Counted from the stretch's first letter, positions 24,983 through 35,919 are shown. The stretch is DNA of 64,000 nucleotides from Sediminicola luteus (GCF_002514735.1 NZ_KZ300476.1:599872-663871); one strand, 5' to 3'. Translations and numbers: made by a program. Notes: a model not told the origin generated them from the sequence alone.

Positions 24983-25474
24983 TCACATATCATTACTAGT
25001 GGGTAGCTCCAGCCAAAGTTCCATGCGAATATCGGCCCGTTCATAGGGAACATCTGCCGGTAACGGAATTTCCCGAAAGCCTACTTTTTCATACAACTTT
25101 AAGGCCGGCACCAACTTTCGGTTCGAATCTAAATACAATCGTTTTATTTGTTCACCCCCAGCAAAGGCAATGGCATGATACATCAATTTTTGTCCAATTT
25201 TAAGGCCTTGGGCCTTAGGGGTAACGGCCATTTTAGACAATTCAAACCCTTGGTCTTCCCGATTGATCAAAGCCACTGTACCCACAGGCTCACCTTGGTA
25301 TAAAGCCATAAAAATATAGCCCCCGGCATCCAATATATACTGTTGCGGATCGGCCAATACTTTTCTGTCGTAGGGTTCCACTTCAAAAAAAGCCTCGAGC
25401 CACTCCAGGTTCAGGGCTTCAAAGTCAGCAGCATGGTTTTCTTGGAACGATACCATAGTAATCTGGTTCTGCAT
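24983..25474 (-). CDS. GNAT-family N-acetyltransferase
   Basis: Acetyl-CoA-binding-type motif 'QGLKIGQKLMYHAIAFAGG'. Typical GNAT size. Confidence 0.7.
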   Translation of the reverse strand: MQNQITMVSFQENHAADFEALNLEWLEAFFEVEPYDRKVLADPQQYILDAGGYIFMALYQGEPVGTVALINREDQGFELSKMAVTPKAQGLKIGQKLMYHAIAFAGGEQIKRLYLDSNRKLVPALKLYEKVGFREIPLPADVPYERADIRMELWLELPTSNDM

Positions 25475-25478
25475 GGCC

Positions 25479-25961
25479 TTAGGTTTTTAAGTTAGCTAAG
25501 GTGCGCTGCCTAAAGTCTTGTTCCTTTAAGCAAGCCTCCATATGGGCCAGTTCCTCCAACATACGACTTTGAGGTGGTAACAATTCAGAAATTCCGGCTT
25601 CCCCGGCCTGCCATACCTCCTTAAAATAGGGTAACTGTTTTTTGGCTTTGGGCGTCAAATGCAAAGGTTTTTTACGGGTGTCGGATTCAGAAACTCCCCG
25701 TACCACATAATCCCGTTCACTCATTTTTTGGATCATGTTCACCACCGTAGGATGGGAAAACCCCAAGCGTTCGGCAATTTCAACCGTGGTCAGGCTTTGG
25801 TTTTCTTCCAACAATTTAAACACCAAGTACCAATTGGGTTCTATATCGAGCCCGATTTCTTTGTACAAGGCCCGGCACGAATGAATCATTTGATCGGAGA
25901 TACGCTTAAAGCGGGCCGCCAAGGCATGGACTCCTATTTCTTTGATATAATCTTCCTTCAT
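25479..25961 (-). CDS. MarR-family transcriptional regulator
   Basis: Winged HTH 'LTTVEIAERLGFSHPTVVNMIQKMSERDYV'. Its stop lies 4 nt before the GNAT gene start. Confidence 0.7.
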   Translation of the reverse strand: MKEDYIKEIGVHALAARFKRISDQMIHSCRALYKEIGLDIEPNWYLVFKLLEENQSLTTVEIAERLGFSHPTVVNMIQKMSERDYVVRGVSESDTRKKPLHLTPKAKKQLPYFKEVWQAGEAGISELLPPQSRMLEELAHMEACLKEQDFRQRTLANLKT

Positions 25962-26024: not shown

Positions 26025-29000
26025 CTACTCCTTATCGTTGAGCAAGGCCTTTCGAATCCCTTCCAAATGTTGTCCGAAACGGGTGAGCTCACCAACTACA
26101 CGTTCAATTTGTCCGTGACTGCTTTGGGCCGCTTGGGAAAGAAATGTAGTTTTAATGGCATTCCAACGCTCTAGTTCTTCTACGGAAATCACCCCAGCCA
26201 ACTCTTTATACTTTAACAAATTGGCTTCGGCAGCAGCAGTTAAGGTCTGGGATTCGTTTTCGTAATGTCCGTCGATAAGTCCTTGCAGTTCTTCCGGATT
26301 CATTATCGGGATTACCTTGGAAGCCATCTTATTCATATCGCGATAGGAACCTTGTAGCTTAAAGGCCGGTTCTTCGCGATATACATCTTCCATAGAGGCC
26401 GATTTAATATAGGTGGCATTCACCTTTAATACAATATCCCGTACTTGAAGCATTTTGCGCAACACCCCCATATACGCATCGATCTCTTGCGGACTATGGT
26501 TGCCTTGCATTTGAAGCCCCTCTTGACTTTCTTTTTCAATGGCCTCCAATAGCGTATATACATCTTCGTAATGGCTATTGGCCAAATCCCGTAAATACGG
26601 ATTGGAGGTCAGGGCGTTTTCAATTAAACTTAGTTTGAACAAGCGATCGGACCCCCCGATAATATCGCCCAAATTATAGATATCGGCCCGGTTGGCCAAC
26701 ATATCTGGAATCTGGAATTTTTCACCGGATTCGGTATAGGGATTCCCCGCCATGATCACACAGAACTTTTTCCCGCGAAGATCATAGGTCTTGGATTGGC
26801 CGTTATACACTCCTTCAATTTTCCGTTGCCCATCAGCCAAGGAAATGAATTTCTGTAAAAACTCCGGATTACAATGTTGGATGTCGTCTAAATACAACAT
26901 TACATTGTTCTCCATTTCAAAGGCCAGGTTTAACTTTTTCAGTTCCTCTTTGGCCGTTACCGAAGTCGCGGGGCCCGGATCAACGGATACCACATTATGG
27001 CCTATGGCGGGACCATTCACCTTTACAAAGGTCAGCCCCAGTCTGTTGGCCACATATTCCATTAGGGTGGTTTTACCATAACCCGGAGGCGATATCAACA
27101 ACAACATACCCATACGATCGGTACGCTGGTTACCCCCAACCGTACCCAATTGTTTGGCCAGGTTATCGCCAATTAAGGGCAAATACACTTTATCTATCAA
27201 TTGGTTGCGTACAAATGAAGACAACACTTTGGGTTTAAACTCACCCAAGCGCATGGCCGCCCTTTTCTTCCCCACCCATTCCTTGATCTTTAGACGTAAG
27301 TTTTCGAACCCAGGACGGGTATGGGTATCGAAATGCCCTAGGCGCTCCATAAAAGCATGATAGTCGAAGGCGTACCGCCCTTCTGAAATCGACTGATGGT
27401 CGCCCATTAAATTTCCCAAGGAAACTAGGGGGTCGGTGGGGTTACTATGTTTTCCTAATAGGCTTGGGAATAAAAGCAGTCCACACGCCTCCTTTTCGTA
27501 AAAGCTATTTTCCCCTGTCGCTTGTACAAAAGCGCCCAACCATTGCTGTGCCAGCTCCATTTTATCTAGCAAAGAAGCACTTTGGGCTACCCCTTTTTGA
27601 AACAGGGCCTCCTTATCTTTTTCCTTTAAAAATTCAAGAAAACGCTCCTTTAGACCAAGTGCCTGTTGTGATACGGTATAGCCATTTTCCCGCTGCAGTT
27701 CTTTGACCAAATACCCTGCCATTTGCCTGTTATTCTCGGAATCTACCAAGCCAGTGGTTTCCATTAACCCCATAATATCAGCTATGCTTTGATCTAAGGT
27801 ATTGGCATGGGGAAAAAGTTGGGCTATCTGACTTACGCGCATCACCTTTTCCCTGATACTTTTACGTTCAGGCTCTTCCAAGCCGAACCAAAATAGCAGG
27901 GCATTGCTACGAATATCAGGGGTAAAAGTGAGCACTCCTAAGGCCTGATGGGTTCGGTGCAACACCTTTAGGATCTGTAAGGCATCTTGATCATGCACCC
28001 CTTTTATATATCCTTCATTATAATGTTCGATAATATAGTCGGCTATATGCTCCCCTAATGCCTCATCGGACTCCAAACCACTTCCATTCAGGCGTAGAAA
28101 CACCTTATAGGCCAAATATTCGGCCCGGTACACCTTATGGTTCTCACTCGGAATGGATTGCTCCCAAAGTTCTGAGGATGTCGGGTTTTCTTCTAGGATC
28201 CGTTCGTAAAAATTGGTGCCCGATAGATGAAAGTGGGGCGCTCCGTTCCGATACAGCACCGAAAGTTCCAAAGGTTGTCTATTGACACCGAATTTGTGGT
28301 TCCCTAAACGGATACTGTCTTCCCCATCTTCAAACAACTCTTGGCGGTCTTTTAATCGCCTGAGCACTTCCTCCTTCAGGGTTTTTAAACGGGTATCTAA
28401 TTCTTCGGCCTTTCCGCTTTCTTCCATCTCCTGAAGTCGCTCGATCAAATCGTAGGTTTTGCCTACCATGATATCGGAGGCAAAATAGCCATGTATGGCC
28501 TCGGCCTCAGTAAAGGTTTTGGCCTTGGTACCCACCCCTTTTAAAATACGTTCGGCCGATTTTACGATCTGTTGTACTTTTTTGTTGCGTTCCTGCAGTA
28601 AAAAAGCCTTCCGTTCTTCAAAAACATTATACAGATCTTCGCGTTTGGCCCCAATTTCATCTACGAATTCGTCATATTCCGAAAAACGGGCCTCCATTTC
28701 TTCTAGCTGAACCGAAATCTTGGTCAGAAAACCATCGCACTTATCGGCCGTATCGGCGATATCGAGATAATTGATCACACTTTGTTCCAGCAACTTTAAT
28801 TGGGCCCCAAAATCACTTTGCGCCTCCAAAGCCCCCAAACTCTTACGTTTCCCTACCAGTTTGGCCTTGGTTTGGTTGAGTGCGGTAAATATGACCGAAA
28901 TAGCATCGATGATCCGGGCCGTTTGGGTGGCATCTTCTATGTTAAGATTGTTCACCACCTCGATCAACAACTCCAATTCCTCACCAATCTCGGTCAGTTT

Positions 29001-30848
29001 CACTTCAAGGTCTTTGGCCTCAACCACCTTTTTCACCTTGTCGATAGCGGCATGGCATTGCTCCACCTTTTGGGTATACGGATCCAAAGCGGATTCCTTT
29101 AACAGAAACCCAATGCATTGCTGAGAGACCTTTTCATTCTGTTCCACGGCCATTTGATCGATCGCCTCCAATACCCCCATATCTATATAGCGTACCTCTC
29201 GGGTGGCAATGATCTGGCCCCGAAGCTTTCTGAGTTCGGAAAGGGTCTGAACGAATTCTTCAATAGACTTGAACTTGGCGTATTTTATGGTATCGAAAAG
29301 CTGATCGGAACTCGCTTTCAACGCCTTACCCGTGCTGACCGCATTTTTACGAAGGGCCACCACTTTTTCGAACTCGTCTATGGCGGCATCGGCCGTATCT
29401 TTAATGGCTTGTAACGGTTGGTCCAAGCCCCCCGTATCGGCTTCTTTGATCCAATAGTAGGAGTCCAAAATATCCATGGCCTGTTTGGCCAAATCGTCGT
29501 AAAGCCCGTCGTAACTATCTTCTTTTTCGAGCAAATAGATCAGTTCGTGACACTCGGCCATGGCCTTGACGATATCTTTGTTCCCGATTTTAAACACCAA
29601 GGTATCGGCATTGGGGTTTTGGCCCACATCTTGTTTCCCGAAAGGGGTTTGCCAAATTTGCACTACATGGTGTTTGGTGGCATCGGCCTCTGCCTTAAAG
29701 TAACAGAGCTGCCCCTGGGGTAAAATGGTAAAACCATTACAGATTATAGGTGTTTTTACCTGTTGTTCAATGATATTGTAGGGCAATATCAGGTAGACCC
29801 CTTCCTGCTTTTGATAGAAAACGAACAAATGATCTTCGCCATTTGTTGCTTGTATCTGCCCCTGGAACAATACCTGGGGTACGCTTTTTTCAAAACGCTT
29901 AAAAGTACCCGTCTGTAAATAATATCCATTCGGAAACAATAGACCTTGATCGTCGGGTAGGCGTATGGCCGCATCGGCCAGACTATCTACCTTCATCACC
30001 TCTTTTACCTTGTGGTTATAGATAAAATAGCGCGGATCTTCTTGATATGGGGTGATCTTTAAAGGAATAAGATTCCCCAGATCGGCATAGGCATAATCGG
30101 CATCGTCCAAGGTTTGGTCGGCATAGGCTACCGGCTCTTCCAAAATGCCCTGTCCTTCATCGGTATTATCCTCGATTTTTATGGTGAGGTCGCCGCCTAC
30201 CGTTTCTACGAAAACCTTGTCTTCGATAGACACATGGGGGTGTTTACCGTACCTATGCATTTCACGGGGCGGGGTTTGCCAGCGGAACTGATATTGATCG
30301 GGGTACACATATTCGTGATCCGAACGGTTGTCTATGTACTGCAACCCATTATCGCGCACCAACCATTTAAAGGTCTTGATGTCGGTAGGATCTTCGCTCA
30401 CTTGAAAAACCATATGCAAGTAATTACCGATCCTGGCGAACTTGGCGAATATGGTATTTCGGTAATACTTGTACAGATTCTCGAAATCGGTCTGGAACTC
30501 CGTAGAATCGAAAAGGCCCAAATCGATAGGATGAAAATGTCCCTCCCGAAATTCATAGGCACTGAACACATCGGAAATCTCGATCTTGTTCCTTAGCCCA
30601 AAGTGCACATTATAACCGAAAATACATCGATTATCCAAGGCAACAATATCGCGAGCAATGCAATTATTATCCGTATTAATACGGTCATTTGCTATAAGTT
30701 TGAATTCAACGTTACCAAATACATCCTTCCGTTTCTGGTTGAGTTCCTGCAAACGGGTTATCAAATCGGCCTTTTGATCATCTAAACGACTTCGGATAAT
30801 CTCATAGGTGCCTTTCTCAAGCTGATTTTGCGCATGCTCTTGAGCCAT
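26025..30848 (-). CDS. Giant (1607 aa) protein with an uncharacterised ~1200-aa N-terminal region and a C-terminal MoxR/AAA_5-type AAA+ ATPase domain; last gene of the PspA-flotillin operon
   Basis: Uninterrupted ORF with an ATG at 30848. Walker A 'ISPPGYGKTTL' (nt 27066-27083, minus strand). Walker B 'VMLYLDDIQ'. Sensor-1-like 'FCVIMAGNPY'. Arg-finger-like 'ANRAD'. The N-terminus has no recognisable domain, no TM segment and long helical stretches. Confidence 0.85.
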   Translation of the reverse strand: MAQEHAQNQLEKGTYEIIRSRLDDQKADLITRLQELNQKRKDVFGNVEFKLIANDRINTDNNCIARDIVALDNRCIFGYNVHFGLRNKIEISDVFSAYEFREGHFHPIDLGLFDSTEFQTDFENLYKYYRNTIFAKFARIGNYLHMVFQVSEDPTDIKTFKWLVRDNGLQYIDNRSDHEYVYPDQYQFRWQTPPREMHRYGKHPHVSIEDKVFVETVGGDLTIKIEDNTDEGQGILEEPVAYADQTLDDADYAYADLGNLIPLKITPYQEDPRYFIYNHKVKEVMKVDSLADAAIRLPDDQGLLFPNGYYLQTGTFKRFEKSVPQVLFQGQIQATNGEDHLFVFYQKQEGVYLILPYNIIEQQVKTPIICNGFTILPQGQLCYFKAEADATKHHVVQIWQTPFGKQDVGQNPNADTLVFKIGNKDIVKAMAECHELIYLLEKEDSYDGLYDDLAKQAMDILDSYYWIKEADTGGLDQPLQAIKDTADAAIDEFEKVVALRKNAVSTGKALKASSDQLFDTIKYAKFKSIEEFVQTLSELRKLRGQIIATREVRYIDMGVLEAIDQMAVEQNEKVSQQCIGFLLKESALDPYTQKVEQCHAAIDKVKKVVEAKDLEVKLTEIGEELELLIEVVNNLNIEDATQTARIIDAISVIFTALNQTKAKLVGKRKSLGALEAQSDFGAQLKLLEQSVINYLDIADTADKCDGFLTKISVQLEEMEARFSEYDEFVDEIGAKREDLYNVFEERKAFLLQERNKKVQQIVKSAERILKGVGTKAKTFTEAEAIHGYFASDIMVGKTYDLIERLQEMEESGKAEELDTRLKTLKEEVLRRLKDRQELFEDGEDSIRLGNHKFGVNRQPLELSVLYRNGAPHFHLSGTNFYERILEENPTSSELWEQSIPSENHKVYRAEYLAYKVFLRLNGSGLESDEALGEHIADYIIEHYNEGYIKGVHDQDALQILKVLHRTHQALGVLTFTPDIRSNALLFWFGLEEPERKSIREKVMRVSQIAQLFPHANTLDQSIADIMGLMETTGLVDSENNRQMAGYLVKELQRENGYTVSQQALGLKERFLEFLKEKDKEALFQKGVAQSASLLDKMELAQQWLGAFVQATGENSFYEKEACGLLLFPSLLGKHSNPTDPLVSLGNLMGDHQSISEGRYAFDYHAFMERLGHFDTHTRPGFENLRLKIKEWVGKKRAAMRLGEFKPKVLSSFVRNQLIDKVYLPLIGDNLAKQLGTVGGNQRTDRMGMLLLISPPGYGKTTLMEYVANRLGLTFVKVNGPAIGHNVVSVDPGPATSVTAKEELKKLNLAFEMENNVMLYLDDIQHCNPEFLQKFISLADGQRKIEGVYNGQSKTYDLRGKKFCVIMAGNPYTESGEKFQIPDMLANRADIYNLGDIIGGSDRLFKLSLIENALTSNPYLRDLANSHYEDVYTLLEAIEKESQEGLQMQGNHSPQEIDAYMGVLRKMLQVRDIVLKVNATYIKSASMEDVYREEPAFKLQGSYRDMNKMASKVIPIMNPEELQGLIDGHYENESQTLTAAAEANLLKYKELAGVISVEELERWNAIKTTFLSQAAQSSHGQIERVVGELTRFGQHLEGIRKALLNDKE

Positions 30849-30967
30849 ATACTTGTATATAGAATTGGAAAAAAGAATGGAGGTCTGCCTACGGTAAAAT
30901 TATCCCTAGGATCCTATTACGGGCCAATCAAAGTGATGTCCCTGAGTCGGCAGGCCTCCGTTCCCAA

Positions 30968-33034
30968 TTATCCTAGCCTTTTATCGCCCAATCCTAAAGA
31001 ACGGACGATATTGGCCAGGTTTAAAAACTGCTGTTTTTGAGTGTCGTCTGTAGCCTTATCTTGCAGTTGAAGCAACAGATTGGCTATGGTCAGGTTTTTG
31101 ATATCGGTGGAGGTTATACCGTATTCCGAAGCAAAATCACGGATGCGATCCAACAATTGACCTTGGTATTCGCCATCGCCCAATAAGGCCTGTTTTAGAT
31201 CTTGGATGTTTTCAGAATGGTTCACCAATCGGTCGAAACCTTTGGCCTTGGTTATCTGACCAACGATCTGCTCAAAGAACATGCTTTCACCACCCACAAT
31301 ATCGATATTGGAGGCTTTTAAGGCTTCTGCGATAACATGGGCCTGGGCGTCGGCAATATCTTTTTGTATACCGATCTCGGCCAATTCTACCTCTTTCTCT
31401 TTATCGAGACGTAGTTTGAACTCTTCGTGCTCTTTACCAACACCATCCAACTTCTTCATGGCTTCGGCTTTTTCTTCTATACCTGAAGCTTCGGCCACGG
31501 CCTTCTCTTTGATTACTTCGGCTTCGGCCATACCATCTAACTTCTTGGCATCGGCCTTGGCCTTGATACCCGTAGCTTCGGCTAAAGCTGTTTTCTCGAT
31601 AATGGTAGCATCTACGATACCCTGTCGCTCGCTGGCATCGGCCTTGGCATGCATAACTTGTGCTTCCGAAATACCAATGGCAGCCTCTTCTTTGGCGCGG
31701 GCCTCGGCAATGGTCTTACGGGCATCGGCCTCTTTTACGGCAGCCTCTTTTTGGGCTTGTGCCTCGATCAATAACTCTTCGGCCTTTTGACGTGCGGCTT
31801 CTTTTTGGGCCTCTGCCTTTTTCACCTCCATAATCAGGTTTTCTTGGGCGGCTGCCTCGGCATTGGTTACCGTTACCTGCTTTTGACGGTCGGCGCCCTT
31901 AAAGGCCTCTAGATCTTTGATGTTCTCCTGTTCCTCGACCACGTTTTTCTCTAAGGCCACCCGGTCGCGGATCACATCTTGAATGTTTTTCTTCTCTACC
32001 TCAACTACCTTTTCCTTCTCGATTTGGGCCAAGGTTACGATACGCTCGCGCTCGGTAGCTTCCAACATACGGTCCTTCTCTACCCGCTCTGTTTCTACCG
32101 CATCGGTACGTTGCTTGTTCTTGGCCGCCACTATGATCTGGCGATCTTTGTTCTCTTCGGCTACGGCCAATTTCTCATCGGTGGCGATGCGGGCCGTCTC
32201 GCCTTTTAGGCGTTCTTCTTCGGCCACTTTTTGGATCGCCGCATCTTCGCGGGCCTTTATATTGGCTATTTCCCGTTTTTGCTGCTCTTCTTTCTCGGCC
32301 AATTGTTTGTCGAGTTCCAAAATGGCTTCCTGGGCCTCTACATCTTGCTTGCGGATTACTTTCTCCTCTTCCCGTTTGATCAAATTCGATTTCATGTTCT
32401 GGGTAGCGGTAAGCTCCGTGATTTTTTTGATACCCTCGGCATCGAGAATATTGTTCGGACTCAAATGCTGAATGTCGGTCTGTTCCAAATAATCAATAGC
32501 ACAATCGTCCAATACGTATCCGTTCAGATCGGTACCGATAATATCCAATATCTCGTCGCGGAATTCCCTTCGGGCTTCGTATAGCTCTATAAACTGGAAC
32601 TTTTTACCCACGGTTTTTAAGGCTTCCGAGAATTTGGCCTCGAACAGTTCTTCCAAAGTTTTCGATTCGCTGGCCCGGGCACAACCTATGGTTTGGGCCA
32701 CATTGATAATATCTTCCTTGGATTTGTTTACCCGAACAAAGAAAGCTACCTTGATGTCGGCACGCATATTGTCCTTACAGATCAAACCGTCCTTACCCAA
32801 ACGATCGATCTGAATTTTTTTGACCGAGATATCCATCACCTCCACCTTGTGGAAAACCGGAATAACATAAAGCCCCTTGTCAAAGGCTACGGCCGTTCCC
32901 TTGAACCCGGTACGTACCAAGGCCTCCCCTTGTGGGATTTTTTTGTAGAACATGGCTATTAGGGCAAAATAGCCGATGAGCAATACTAGAATGGCACCTA
33001 CCGCCATTCCTACAATCGATAAAATCGTATCCAT
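30968..33034 (-). CDS. Flotillin/SPFH (band-7) family protein with an extended Glu/Ala-rich coiled coil (YqiK-like)
   Basis: N-terminal TM helix 'ILSIVGMAVGAILVLLIGYFALIAMF'. SPFH core ('QGEALVRTGFKGTAVAFDKGLYVIPVFHKVEVMDISVKKIQIDR...'). Then ~350 aa of EA-repeat coiled coil typical of flotillins. Confidence 0.85.
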   Translation of the reverse strand: MDTILSIVGMAVGAILVLLIGYFALIAMFYKKIPQGEALVRTGFKGTAVAFDKGLYVIPVFHKVEVMDISVKKIQIDRLGKDGLICKDNMRADIKVAFFVRVNKSKEDIINVAQTIGCARASESKTLEELFEAKFSEALKTVGKKFQFIELYEARREFRDEILDIIGTDLNGYVLDDCAIDYLEQTDIQHLSPNNILDAEGIKKITELTATQNMKSNLIKREEEKVIRKQDVEAQEAILELDKQLAEKEEQQKREIANIKAREDAAIQKVAEEERLKGETARIATDEKLAVAEENKDRQIIVAAKNKQRTDAVETERVEKDRMLEATERERIVTLAQIEKEKVVEVEKKNIQDVIRDRVALEKNVVEEQENIKDLEAFKGADRQKQVTVTNAEAAAQENLIMEVKKAEAQKEAARQKAEELLIEAQAQKEAAVKEADARKTIAEARAKEEAAIGISEAQVMHAKADASERQGIVDATIIEKTALAEATGIKAKADAKKLDGMAEAEVIKEKAVAEASGIEEKAEAMKKLDGVGKEHEEFKLRLDKEKEVELAEIGIQKDIADAQAHVIAEALKASNIDIVGGESMFFEQIVGQITKAKGFDRLVNHSENIQDLKQALLGDGEYQGQLLDRIRDFASEYGITSTDIKNLTIANLLLQLQDKATDDTQKQQFLNLANIVRSLGLGDKRLG

Positions 33035-33039
33035 TCTCT

Positions 33040-33783
33040 TTATTGGTTTTTATAAGGTTGTACAAAAAATGTATTGGGTTTTTCCCCTTTTTCAATCAGT
33101 AATACCGTGTCTCCGCGGTTTATGGCCTCCCCATTGATAGCATAACCATACACTTTAATCGGGTCGTCTTCGATGACCACTTCTACAAAGCCCATTTTTT
33201 CACCTTGTATGGTCGACAGCATAATACCCCGTCGCCCGATAAGATCCAATGGCGCATCGCCTTGTTCGTTAAAATTCCGGAAGAAGGACTTAAAAGGAGC
33301 GGTAACCCATTTGTTTATGAACAGGGCCGGAAGCAACATGCCCAACATGATGGCAAAACCCAAAATATTGTTATAGGTAAAGGTCATATAGGTACCAAGC
33401 ACACTAAAAAGCCACCAGAACAAGATCAAAAACGACAGGGTGAACAAAAAAGGCAGACCGACGAAGTTGAAATAGATCAAAAATACCTGTAGGTAATTCA
33501 GTTTGCCCCTACGGCGTACATGTTTCTTATCTACTTCTACATTAGAAGCGTCTTCGAACTCAAAGCTATCACCTACTTGGTGGGCCGTATCCAACTCTAT
33601 ATCCGCATCTACATCGGCATCAAAATCGAGCTCTACATCGAAATCGGTGTCTATATTGACCAAATCGGTATCCAAGCCCGCGATAATGGTTATAATCCAG
33701 TACAGCAGACAGAGTCCCAACAAAAGGGTGGGCACCAAATTGACCTGCGAAAAAATGACCTGTGCTACTTCCGATTCGAACAT
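33040..33783 (-). CDS. YqiJ/NfeD-type membrane protein with a C-terminal OB-fold, partner of flotillin
   Basis: N-terminal TM helix, acidic stretch 'DTDFDVELDFDADVDADIELD', a second hydrophobic block, and a C-terminal 'GRRGIMLSTIQGEKMGFVEVVIEDDPIKVYGYAINGEAINRGDTVLLIE' beta-rich NfeD-like domain. Its ATG overlaps the PspA stop (TAATG). Confidence 0.7.
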   Translation of the reverse strand: MFESEVAQVIFSQVNLVPTLLLGLCLLYWIITIIAGLDTDLVNIDTDFDVELDFDADVDADIELDTAHQVGDSFEFEDASNVEVDKKHVRRRGKLNYLQVFLIYFNFVGLPFLFTLSFLILFWWLFSVLGTYMTFTYNNILGFAIMLGMLLPALFINKWVTAPFKSFFRNFNEQGDAPLDLIGRRGIMLSTIQGEKMGFVEVVIEDDPIKVYGYAINGEAINRGDTVLLIEKGEKPNTFFVQPYKNQ

Positions 33784-34493
33784 TAATCTTCTTTGTTAAG
33801 TCCGAGTTGCTCTTTTAACTTATCCAGATCGCTTTGGGCATTGGCCTCAGAAACATCGACGGCCTTGTCGATCTCTTCATCTATGGATTTGTTGGCATTG
33901 GCCATTTCGCCATAGGCTTCGGCCAGGGCTTCTTCCTCAGCCACACGATCTTTCATCTTTTCGAGCAGGCTTACCGTGCCCGAACTATCGATCTCGGCCA
34001 TTTGCTTGTTCAGGTTTTTAGTAGCCTTGCCCACTTTTACACGGGCTTTAAGCGTTTTAAGCTCGTTTTCCCATTTGGTGATATTGGTTCGGATCTGTTT
34101 TACGGCCGATTCGAGTTTTAGCACGGAAGCTTCCATTTTTTCAGATTCTTGCTCGCTTTGTTTTTGGCTTTCCAAAGCCTGCTCTTTTAACAATAAGGCT
34201 TCTTTGGCCAAACGCTCGGCCTCGGTGAGCTCCATATCCCCTTTTTGGGCTTTCTGCAATAAGAGGGTGGCTTTGGAATGGTAGGCCGCAGCCTTGTCTT
34301 TATGCGAGGTAATATCGTTCTTAGATCGTATGGCCAATGCTTTTACCTTGGCCAAGGATTCCAAACCTTTTTCCAGGTCTTCCTTTAGGTCACGAATGCC
34401 TTGCTCGGTCATTTTAATGGGATCTTCCAGTTTATCTATACTGGCATGGGCCTCTGCCTGCCCTATTTTGAATAATCGTTTAAAAAAGTTCAT
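33783..34493 (-). CDS. PspA/IM30 family protein (bacterial ESCRT-III homologue)
   Basis: ATG at 34493 gives 'MNFFKRLFKIGQAEAHASIDKLEDPIKMTEQGIRDLKEDLEKGLESLAKVKA...', the canonical PspA N-terminus. Coiled-coil throughout, ~236 aa. Confidence 0.85.
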   Translation of the reverse strand: MNFFKRLFKIGQAEAHASIDKLEDPIKMTEQGIRDLKEDLEKGLESLAKVKALAIRSKNDITSHKDKAAAYHSKATLLLQKAQKGDMELTEAERLAKEALLLKEQALESQKQSEQESEKMEASVLKLESAVKQIRTNITKWENELKTLKARVKVGKATKNLNKQMAEIDSSGTVSLLEKMKDRVAEEEALAEAYGEMANANKSIDEEIDKAVDVSEANAQSDLDKLKEQLGLNKED

Positions 34494-34497
34494 CGTT

Positions 34498-34893
34498 TTA
34501 TTTTTTTGAAAATGCAATAATTTCTGTTGAATATTCACTCAGCAACAAACTGAGGGAGTTTAAGGAAGCTTCGATCTCATTTTTGTCCAAACTACCTAGT
34601 TGTAGGGTATCCCGAAAGATTACCCCACTACCCTTTTCATCGAGTACAAAGGCCCCGTGTATGATATCACGGTTCTTTTGCAATAACTTTTTGTACACAT
34701 CGCCATGGGTATGGCCCAATTCGCAAATAAATTGTTCCATGATCACAATGGGATAGGCACAACCAATGATCATATTGGTAATCCCTTCATGCTCCTTGTC
34801 TATACGCAAGATGCCTTCTTCGGGATTCTCGTATGAAATGGTATAATCGAGTTCTAACAGAAACCCTTTTAATACTTGAAAGTGGTTCTTCAT
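34498..34893 (-). CDS. YbjN-domain protein (frequent PspA-associated partner)
   Basis: 131 aa. The pattern 'ISYENPEEGILRIDKEHEGITNMIIGCAYPIVIM...FVLDEKGSGVIFRDTLQLGSLDKNEIE' fits the YbjN/type-III-chaperone-like fold. Ends 4 nt before the PspA start. Confidence 0.6.
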   Translation of the reverse strand: MKNHFQVLKGFLLELDYTISYENPEEGILRIDKEHEGITNMIIGCAYPIVIMEQFICELGHTHGDVYKKLLQKNRDIIHGAFVLDEKGSGVIFRDTLQLGSLDKNEIEASLNSLSLLLSEYSTEIIAFSKK

Positions 34894-35157
34894 TGTTGGT
34901 TATCTTTTGATGCCCTATCAAAATTTAAGACCATTATCGGTATACTTGATCCAGCATCGAATTGACTATAAATATATTGGTTCACATTCAGAAGAAAAAC
35001 TAAATTAGACAAACTGTCTTATGCTCGATTTTTCTAGGGCCCAGTGAAGCCTGATTAGGTCAAATACAAAATGTTCGCGAATTATTTTGTATTATTGCTA
35101 ATAACGTTAACAATATTAGAGCAAAATATTCAGTTTTGCAAATTTTATTAGCATTTT
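34894..35157. promoter_or_regulatory. Divergent promoter/operator region between the PspA-flotillin operon and a LexA-like regulator gene
   Basis: AT-rich 264-bp spacer. It contains 9-bp inverted repeat arms TGCTAATAA (35097-35105) and TTATTAGCA (35145-35153), plus an imperfect palindrome centred on GTTAAC (35106-35111). Confidence 0.5.
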
Positions 35158-35919
35158 ATGTCCTGCTTCGGTAAAAACATCAAAAAAATAAGGAAACTCC
35201 AAGGGATGAGCCAATTGGAATTCGGGCAGCTGTTCGATTTAAAACGGGCTACTTTGGGGGCCTATGAGGAAGGACGCAGTGAACCCAAGATCGAAACACT
35301 TATCAAAGTTGCTAACCATTTTAGCATATCGATTGACAAATTGTTGACCCAGGACCTATCTATAAACGAGCTTCTCAATTTTAGAACTGACCTGACCGGT
35401 GAAGCCCACAGCATTGAAACCAAGATGCTCAGTAAAATACCCTTGATAAGTCATGCCAATTTAGGCAAACTCAAACCCGATTCTTTTAAAAAGGACGATT
35501 TTAACCTTCAGATTGCCTTACCCTCACTTTCCGACCAGGATTATTATGCCTTTGAGGTTTTGGATGTGGCCATGAGCCAAAACAACCACGGGGTGTTTCC
35601 TAAAGATTTGGTCATTGGCAGTGTTGCCGAATTGGACAACTTGAATACTTCGGATTGGTATGTATGGATTTTGGAAGACCGTTACCTCATCCGTAAGTTC
35701 ATAGCGATTACCGATGGTGACATTCAAATACAAGCCATACATAGGGGAATGCCGGAAGAACAGATCGCCATTTCGGAAGTATCCCGTCTTTTTAAGGTGA
35801 ACAGTATCGTACGTCATAATTTCTCGTATGGCGAAACGGAATTGGAGACCCGACTACATCAATTGGAATCCTTGATCAAAGAAACCCCTCCCCCTAAAAA
35901 GACACCAACCCACAAATAG
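35158..35919 (+). CDS. LexA/phage-repressor-like regulator: N-terminal XRE-HTH plus C-terminal S24-peptidase-like domain
   Basis: 'KKIRKLQGMSQLEFGQLFDLKRATLGAYEEGRSEPKIETLIKVANHFSISIDKL' is an HTH_XRE sequence. The C-terminal half ('AFEVLDVAMSQ...LVIG...YLIRKF') resembles the LexA/CI autoproteolytic fold, with candidate Ser and Lys residues. Confidence 0.65.
   Translation: MSCFGKNIKKIRKLQGMSQLEFGQLFDLKRATLGAYEEGRSEPKIETLIKVANHFSISIDKLLTQDLSINELLNFRTDLTGEAHSIETKMLSKIPLISHANLGKLKPDSFKKDDFNLQIALPSLSDQDYYAFEVLDVAMSQNNHGVFPKDLVIGSVAELDNLNTSDWYVWILEDRYLIRKFIAITDGDIQIQAIHRGMPEEQIAISEVSRLFKVNSIVRHNFSYGETELETRLHQLESLIKETPPPKKTPTHK

Follow-up and report, generated by a model that had tools for sequence, protein, structure and literature searches.

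We analyzed a 64,000-nucleotide (nt) stretch of DNA from Sediminicola luteus (GCF_002514735.1 NZ_KZ300476.1:599872-663871), referred to here as the window, in which a tight set of five minus-strand genes encodes proteins of membrane-scaffolding and membrane-remodelling families together with a giant AAA+ protein, next to a divergently transcribed regulator gene. A preliminary description made from the sequence had proposed this set, and all six open reading frames (ORFs) were found where it had placed them. Table 1 shows the six genes along with two non-coding features of the locus.

Table 1. Genes and non-coding features of the locus (positions counted from the first letter of the window).
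Feature	Position	Strand	Size	Basis
CesT/Tir-superfamily (YbjN-like) small soluble protein, operon gene 1	34498-34893	-	131 aa	Pfam
PspA/IM30 (bacterial ESCRT-III) protein, operon gene 2	33783-34493	-	236 aa from ATG	Pfam
NfeD/YqiJ-like protein with three transmembrane segments, operon gene 3	33040-33783	-	247 aa	Fold and gene position
YqiK-type flotillin, operon gene 4	30968-33034	-	688 aa	Band_7, YqiK similarity
Giant AAA+ protein, operon gene 5	26025-30848	-	1607 aa, soluble	Pfam
Divergent XRE-type helix-turn-helix regulator	35158-35919	+	253 aa	HTH_3
Terminator-like hairpin in the flotillin-ATPase spacer	30867-30959	-		Folding; stem GGAGGCCUGCC/GGCAGACCUCC, then AUUCUUUUUU
Conserved non-coding block between the regulator and CesT-like genes	35096-35153	no strand		Alignment of related loci

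The gene junctions read exactly as had been described: TAA-aacg-ATG between the CesT-like gene and pspA (a gap of 4 nt), TAATG between pspA and the NfeD-like gene (an overlap of 1 nt), TAA-agaga-ATG between the NfeD-like and flotillin genes (a gap of 5 nt) and a spacer of 119 nt (30849-30967) between the flotillin and giant ATPase genes. The idea that the five genes form one transcription unit is plausible, and reverse transcription-PCR (RT-PCR) spanned all the junctions of the Pseudomonas aeruginosa counterpart described below. The proposal of a single conserved cluster was also borne out, since the gene order recurs in dozens of genomes, and this arrangement is far beyond chance.

The Pfam searches supported the family labels given earlier to four of the five products. 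The product of the first gene matched CesT_Tir_1 over its full length (176.4 bits versus a cutoff of 27, E=3e-52) and YbjN with a lower score (36.6 bits versus 22, E=6e-9). The protein has no transmembrane (TM) segment, and a search of the PDB with it found nothing even at E<=10. Its gene adjoins pspA in 29 Bacteroidota loci. Residues 3-229 of the second product matched PspA_IM30 (135.5 bits versus 33.9, E=2.7e-39), and residues 1-203 aligned with solved Vipp1/PspA chains at E ~1e-11. The pspA ORF reaches upstream to a GTG at 34538; we favored the ATG at 34493 as the start because the ATG form and the solved chains align from the first residue of each. When the protein was compared with the E. 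coli PspA equivalog TIGR02977 (46.5 bits versus 243) and with LiaH (35.6 versus 380), both scores fell below the cutoffs. As judged from these profile scores, the window PspA belongs to a distinct PspA subfamily.

The flotillin matched Band_7 (50.2 bits versus 23.6, E=4e-13) and was 31% identical to E. coli YqiK over 481 aa (E=9e-47), while its score against the NCBIfam FloT equivalog was 15 bits versus a cutoff of 700. A single TM segment at residues 1-34 is followed by the SPFH domain, a long E/A/K-rich coiled coil (60% E/A/K/Q/R in residues 201-560) and a C-terminal domain. The third product, previously labelled YqiJ/NfeD, contains three hydrophobic segments, which a disordered linker rich in acidic residues (19 of 50 are D/E) connects to an OB-fold beta domain at the C-terminus. 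It had no match in Pfam or NCBIfam, BLASTP to E. coli YqiJ was empty, and hhalign against E. coli YqiJ gave a weak match (E=1e-3, probability 20%). The AlphaFold2 (AF2) model built with 35 homologues (predicted local distance difference test score, pLDDT, 79.6) shows helical TM segments, leaves the acidic linker disordered and places a beta domain at the C-terminus, and the top four Foldseek matches of this model in the PDB were all NfeD proteins: YbbJ of the QmcA-YbbJ complex (8z5g), YuaF (2k14), PH1510-C (3wwv) and MTH693 (2k5h). The source databases name the homologues DUF1449 or OB-fold proteins. The earlier label is therefore right by modelled fold and gene position, although no sequence profile carries it. 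A 98% identical copy of the NfeD-like protein was also seen in a JGI metagenome.

The giant protein had been described as recognizable only in a C-terminal, MoxR/AAA_5-like ATPase, but its N-terminus matched DUF3686 (residues 28-465, E=6e-176), followed by DUF7902 (E=7.6e-26). In the ATPase part, Pfam identified both AAA (PF00004, E=1.3e-8) and AAA_5 (E=1.5e-6); AAA_5 scored 28.7 bits versus a cutoff of 22, and PF00004 scored higher. No gene for a VWA protein, the partner of MoxR, was found near the locus. The order along the chain is the DUF3686 N-domain, DUF7902, a long helical region, the AAA+ core and a helical C-terminus. The term "beta-propeller" for the DUF3686 N-domain is a label of Ravi et al. 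2024 alone (PMC11237479). Hydropathy analysis found no TM segment in the giant protein, which is soluble, while its flotillin and NfeD-like partners are membrane anchored. The Walker A motif GYGKT, the Walker B DD, Asn1369, Arg1342 and Arg1387 were invariant in 30 diverse homologues. In the AF2 model that covers residues 408-1607 (pLDDT 72.8, predicted template modelling score 0.39), about 420 residues form very long helices; these lead to a small beta unit and a helical domain, after which come a canonical AAA+ alpha/beta core and a C-terminus that is again helical. According to this model the giant protein is a ring-type AAA+ module, of a clade not assignable from the model. A phmmer search with the giant protein matched only Walker A stretches.

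The giant family comprises more than 4,500 proteins at E<=1e-5 and is present in at least 8 phyla. When residues 1-1200 served as the query, the matches fell into at least 1,298 clusters at 50% identity, and members as distant as 26-30% identity still have the full-length architecture. No identical copy of the giant protein was found in the public collection, and the closest relative found (locus L001) is 62% identical.

To analyze the gene neighborhoods, we scanned species-representative genomes with the giant protein, obtained 591 confirmed matches and analyzed the best 80 loci, which hold the closest relatives of the giant protein (at least 43% identity). ORFs were called in each locus and then searched with the window proteins, a procedure that may miss divergent NfeD-like genes. 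Of the 67 informative loci, which come from five phyla, 64 have a flotillin gene directly upstream of the giant gene and on the same strand (Bacteroidota, 38/40; Planctomycetota, 7/7; Verrucomicrobiota, 14/14; Desulfobacterota, 1/2; Clostridia, 4/4). An NfeD-like gene was detected in 61 of the 67, with its place just upstream of the flotillin gene conserved. PspA was found upstream of the giant gene in 30 of 65 loci, all of them from Bacteroidota. The CesT-like gene, pspA and a divergent helix-turn-helix (HTH) gene occurred together in 29 of 38 Bacteroidota loci and in 0 of 27 elsewhere. If the giant gene were always to go with both pspA and flotillin, as the preliminary description had suggested checking, the flotillin half of the rule stands and the PspA half does not. 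The constant partner of the giant protein is thus the flotillin/NfeD pair and not PspA. The results show an ancient invariant core, made of the NfeD-like 3-TM protein, the membrane-anchored YqiK-type flotillin and the giant soluble ATPase, and a lineage-specific add-on in Bacteroidota, made of the CesT-like protein, PspA and the divergent XRE regulator.

The arrangement of NfeD-like, flotillin and giant genes was also found by tblastn of plasmid records, in Pseudomonas (pQBR103), Proteus, Vibrio, Deinococcus and Streptomyces. At locus L001 the CesT-PspA-HTH genes are absent, which indicates that close relatives gain or lose the PspA module as a whole; the NfeD-like ORF there seems shortened (101-158 aa). 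At three loci (L036, L061 and L062) the giant gene has 7.6-10 kb of upstream DNA and yet no flotillin or NfeD-like gene nearby. On plasmid pQBR103 of Pseudomonas fluorescens SBW25 (L085, 84452-105326), a complete yjfIJKLMC-type PspA/polyamine operon with a rhomboid protease gene is fused directly upstream of the triad, joining two PspA contexts in one array. In two Proteobacteria, Vibrio campbellii (L087, 12834-14612) and P. aeruginosa (L094, 3271-3963), the gene next to the giant one on its downstream side is of the PLDc_2 family. In Vibrio a TelA (toxic anion resistance) gene comes after PLDc_2, and in Streptomyces (L089) a TerD gene lies nearby; the system may be linked to Ter-type stress modules.

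The preliminary description had held that this combination of genes was functionally undescribed. However, the same operon class, with the same five families and architectures, was catalogued by Ravi et al. (mSystems 2024, PMC11237479; preprint 2020; example ANH61663.1), who described the third component as a 3TM protein of the YqiJ/YuaF type, noted a PLD-family gene in some Proteobacteria and found shortened operons of flotillin and YqiJ, with or without the ATPase, to be more widespread. Our counts for flotillin and PspA confirm their finding on the shortened operons. Their description is purely computational, and its text contains no XRE, S24 or LexA terms, no operator-like motif and no spacer hairpin.

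The second known system is the P. aeruginosa bac operon, bacABCDEF (PA3732-PA3727), for which mutant, proteomic and structural data are available. Using the published bac RT-PCR primers, we located bac contigs among metagenome contigs. Three contigs (L096, L100 and L108) together carry most of the primers, and none of them has the 16180/90 reverse primer; for the 16190/20 primer pair the sole carrier is another contig, L094, on which bacE and bacF lie. The bacA ORF of L100 matched the deposited BacA structure (8q8o) at E=9e-90. The bac operon has the same order of a small chaperone-like protein, PspA, an NfeD-like TM protein, a 688-aa flotillin and a giant DUF3686/DUF7902/AAA+ protein. BacB and the window PspA share 27% identity (E=2e-7), BacC matched the profile of the window NfeD-like family by hhalign (probability 97.9%, E=4.5e-13), the 688-aa BacD/PaFlo3 shares about 45% identity with the window flotillin, and BacE/PA3728 (1746 aa; DUF3686, DUF7902 and AAA) is 41% identical to the window giant protein over its full length. 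The reported sizes of PA3732 (16 kDa), PA3730 (23 kDa, with TM segments) and PA3729 (76 kDa) also fit (Mace 2008, PMC2587700; Wallart 2024, PMC10948618), and PA3728 is listed as an "ATPase" in a review table. As judged from these homologies and the gene order, the window locus is the Bacteroidota form of a known, widespread membrane-stress cluster, of which bacABCDEF is the proteobacterial form.

The two forms differ at their ends. The first bac gene encodes BacA, a DUF2170/YjfI protein, while the first gene in the window encodes a CesT_Tir_1 protein; BLASTP and hhalign found nothing between the CesT-like family and BacA, and we claim likeness of position only, not homology. After the giant gene, the bac operon continues with bacF (PLDc_2) and then recJ, while the window has genes for a MarR-family regulator and a GNAT acetyltransferase. 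The bac promoter was proposed from its sequence to be of the sigma-54 type, while the window has the divergent XRE regulator. Since BacB to BacE are homologous to the window proteins and stand in the same order, the bac literature applies to the window system. The bac genes form one operon by RT-PCR across all junctions; deletion of bacA raised BacB-F 6- to 13-fold; bacA and bacB mutants were impaired in biofilm formation, rhamnolipid production, swarming and virulence; and PA3731 accumulated after osmotic shock (PMC2587700, PMC10948618). A 2026 study identified BacD as PaFlo3, paired with the "short NfeD" PA14_16160 (PMC13086221).

A dedicated divergent regulator, as proposed earlier, accompanies the CesT-PspA pair at all 29 loci where this pair occurs. 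The regulator matched HTH_3 (E=2e-13), and an alignment of 25 members showed a near-invariant HTH and a poorly conserved C-terminal half. It had been described as a LexA-like repressor with an S24 domain, which was taken to suggest SOS-like control. No profile library detected an S24 domain, and Pfam gave none even at E<=10. The regulator family profile reached LexA chains only at E 0.03-0.3, and hhalign of the regulator against E. coli LexA gave a weak match (E=1.9e-4, probability 47%) between residues 117-207 and LexA residues 102-183. Ser140 of the regulator aligns to LexA Ser119, in a column that holds S or T in about half of the family and T, V, Q or a gap in many relatives, and LexA Lys156 aligns to Arg179. 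The Ser-Lys catalytic dyad of LexA/CI-type repressors is not conserved in the family, and inspection of the translation revealed no Ala-Gly or Cys-Gly cleavage dipeptide in residues 66-125. Given the weak LexA match, the non-conserved dyad and the linker without a cleavage site, LexA-type self-cleavage and SOS-type control by this regulator are unsupported. An S24-like fold of its C-terminal domain is possible.

The window has a single exact copy of the motif TGCTAATNNNATTTGCA, at 35136-35153, and 4 nt separate it from the regulator start codon. The motif was also found once in each of 14 related loci, always between the regulator and CesT-like genes, and nowhere else in the 116 loci scanned. 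An exact 14-base motif by the regulator start is kept across genera, and the alignment of the intergenic regions of related loci has 15 invariant columns. The block is composed of TGCTAAT-N3-ATTTGCAA, then a TAnnTTT(G/A)-like box and then the inverted partner TTATTAGCA ((T)TATTAGC), and it is best read as candidate operator sites overlapping the divergent promoters. Two more perfect palindromes, ATACAAAATAATTCGCGAACATTTTGTAT and TTTTGATAGGGCATCAAAA (at ~35064-35092 and ~34905-34923), lie in the long leader upstream of gene 1, with TTTTGATAGGGCATCAAAA just before the start codon.

The hairpin in the flotillin-ATPase spacer has a minimum free energy of -35.8 kcal/mol (z=-2.0 versus dinucleotide shuffles). 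When the related loci with a spacer of 40-260 nt were folded, the same spacer reached z<-2 (mononucleotide shuffles) in 23 of 32, and many of these spacers contain a textbook hairpin followed by a T-run, several right after the flotillin stop codon. The pattern suggests conserved intra-operon attenuation. We read the hairpin as an intra-operon attenuator or a stabilizer of the mRNA 3' end, and predict that scaffold output would be well above ATPase output. The attenuator reading fits read-through, given the RT-PCR across the junctions in P. aeruginosa. Spacer hairpins were seen in loci L002, L006, L014, L026, L030, L031, L033, L045, L046 and others, which belong to several phyla and have unrelated sequences. 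The spacer is also an insertion hot spot (L005, L008, L011, L018, L021, L049, L050, L053, L059, L066, L069 and L081), with inserts that include IS200/RAYT-like transposases, DUF559-like proteins and lipoproteins. The inserts were considered as extra conserved components of the operon and rejected, as they are mutually unrelated.

The surroundings of the locus are ordinary genes (MarR, GNAT and nitroreductase), and the base composition is uniform. The MarR-family regulator and GNAT acetyltransferase genes lie directly downstream of the giant gene (24983-25961) on the same strand, with a 4-nt gap between the two, and are probably a separate unit from the operon; the pair is also kept at L001. 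No Rfam family or tRNA gene was found in the window. A sigma-70 promoter scan of the window found 17 sites versus 19.3 expected, which is the level of chance, with a model that is not applicable to Bacteroidota promoters.

We propose, with a probability of roughly 0.55, that the operon is an envelope-stress membrane-scaffold module in which flotillin and the NfeD-like protein form the scaffold, the giant protein is the motor, PspA is the effector, the CesT-like protein is the gate, the XRE regulator provides control and the spacer hairpin tunes the output. On the cytoplasmic side of the inner membrane, the flotillin and its NfeD partner would build an SPFH cage or microdomain, similar to QmcA-YbbJ. 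The giant protein would dock onto it through its DUF3686 and helical regions, and ATP would drive the assembly, disassembly or remodelling of the scaffold or its clients. PspA, recruited as a membrane-sealing effector, would polymerize on damaged membrane at the scaffold sites. The CesT-like protein may hold PspA, or limit operon expression, until stress occurs, comparable to the effect of BacA loss in raising BacB-F. The XRE regulator would bind the TGCTAAT/ATTTGCAA sites and control both divergent promoters, probably with the variable C-terminal domain, and not LexA-type self-cleavage, as its means of sensing a signal. The hairpin after the flotillin gene would attenuate transcription and give far more scaffold than ATPase.

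Parts of this mechanism have precedents in other systems. In Bacillus subtilis, pspA-ydjGHI (samGHI) likewise places a PspA gene in one operon with an SPFH protein and membrane partners, and recruitment of PspA to the membrane is reported to depend on the SPFH protein (PMC8581546); this SPFH-PspA recruitment is the precedent for the PspA step above. However, the B. subtilis operon has no giant AAA+ ATPase, NfeD-type partner or CesT-like gene, and YdjI is soluble and recruited by YdjG/H. E. coli yqiJ-yqiK also has an NfeD-like gene directly upstream of a flotillin/SPFH gene, but consists of the pair only, with no ATPase, PspA, chaperone or dedicated regulator; among solved complexes, QmcA-YbbJ (8z5g) provides the top fold match of the window NfeD-like model. 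The ESCRT-III/Vps4 systems of archaea and eukaryotes resemble the window operon in encoding an ESCRT-III-fold polymer together with an AAA+ ATPase, while the window ATPase, which tracks flotillin and not PspA, is four times larger and lacks an MIT domain.

This last comparison bears on the alternative that the giant protein is a Vps4 analogue that mainly disassembles and recycles PspA polymers, with flotillin and the NfeD-like protein as the membrane platform only. PspA is indeed an ESCRT-III homologue, Ravi et al. see in PspA-linked AAA+ proteins a parallel to Snf7/Vps4 (PMC11237479), and classical-clade AAA proteins (p97 and Vps4) are among the sequence and fold matches of the giant protein, with PF00004 above AAA_5. 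However, the giant gene lacks an adjacent pspA in 35 of the 65 informative loci and in every non-Bacteroidota locus among them, while it is almost never without flotillin, and its closest relative at L001 has no PspA module. A search for the Vps4-type architecture, an N-terminal MIT domain plus a single classical AAA cassette, found no MIT domain in the giant protein, and Vps4 ranks 35 among equally weak fold matches. Since the ATPase tracks flotillin and not PspA, this alternative is weakened, and we consider it unlikely.

An anti-phage or abortive-infection island, which had also been raised in the preliminary description, would sense infection and disrupt the membrane; in Proteobacteria, the linked PLD-family protein would also degrade nucleic acids. 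Scans with PADLOC and PHROGs produced no specific match for such a role: only generic HTH matches were obtained, along with generic P-loop matches at E>=1e-4 for the non-HTH proteins, although the weak PADLOC HTH matches do mean that the HTH of the regulator resembles those of defence-associated regulators. The system is found on plasmids and megaplasmids, the flotillin-giant spacer is a hot spot of insertion, and P. aeruginosa and Vibrio have a PLDc_2 gene after the giant gene, with TelA next in Vibrio; but the window locus has no PLD gene, stands among ordinary genes in DNA of uniform composition and belongs to a system that is stably syntenic across whole phyla rather than patchy, and the known inducers and phenotypes are osmotic and biofilm related. 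Such a role therefore appears improbable.

That the giant protein is a DNA-repair ATPase lying beside membrane genes by coincidence is hardly credible: the PGAP family name "DNA repair ATPase" and the Pfam description of DUF3686 as "ATPase involved in DNA repair" have spread to thousands of proteins, weak RuvB P-loop matches exist and recJ is nearby in P. aeruginosa, but the RuvB matches span the Walker A region only (~45 residues, 23 bits versus a cutoff of 282), no DNA-binding or nuclease domain was found in the giant protein, a literature search found no paper mentioning DUF3686, the regulator has no conserved LexA dyad, and the flotillin/NfeD linkage at 64 of 67 loci cannot be coincidence. 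With no supporting domain, gene context or paper found, the database name is probably misleading.

Several observations also count against the envelope-stress scaffold module that we prefer. The families, the synteny, the cis-elements and the equivalence to the bac operon were established here, and the interactions and activities in the mechanism are ones that we infer for every organism concerned. The fold of the giant model matches NorQ, RuvB, p97, dynein, Skd3/ClpB and Vps4, all weakly (E ~1e-4), and the top match, NorQ (E=9e-5), is no better than RuvB or p97; a search of the PDB with the full-length profile of the giant family found nothing. There is no obvious aromatic pore loop in the giant protein, which, together with the lack of an MIT domain, leaves the threading of ESCRT-III or SPFH subunits unproven. 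Binding of the regulator to the intergenic motif is likewise something that we infer, from conservation and position alone. The BacA regulatory data may not transfer to the CesT-like gene, as the two share no sequence homology. The spacer hairpin could also terminate transcription fully, and the giant gene would then be transcribed from a promoter of its own; unrelated small genes are inserted in the spacer at ~20 loci. Finally, the P. aeruginosa phenotypes such as biofilm and rhamnolipid are pleiotropic, and deletion of paFlo3 reduced biofilm by only about 20% (PMC13086221).

The operon class itself was already known, having been catalogued in 2024 and partly studied in P. aeruginosa as "bac". 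This analysis adds the explicit unification of that class with bacABCDEF, counts that put flotillin/NfeD ahead of PspA as the partner of the ATPase, the regulator and operator motif of Bacteroidota and the conserved spacer hairpin. The unification joins two largely separate literatures, that of the operon class of Ravi et al. and that of the P. aeruginosa bac cluster, and gives the biofilm and virulence phenotypes of P. aeruginosa a molecular frame.

The giant protein is genetically tied to flotillin/NfeD and, in some lineages, to PspA. As a tentative extension of the scaffold module, it could be the first dedicated ATP-driven remodeller of the SPFH/flotillin-NfeD cage, coupled in Bacteroidota and some Proteobacteria to a chaperone-gated PspA as an ESCRT-like membrane-repair machine, with a non-cleaving LexA-fold repressor that senses a membrane-derived signal as the Bacteroidota switch. 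If so, the work of the giant protein would be to open or close the cage, or to recycle it. The analysis points to parts that can be tested, namely the giant ATPase, the conserved operator and the attenuator hairpin. The giant family is a candidate motor for the assembly, opening and recycling of flotillin/SPFH cages, and it bears on how PspA is controlled outside the PspF and Lia circuits.

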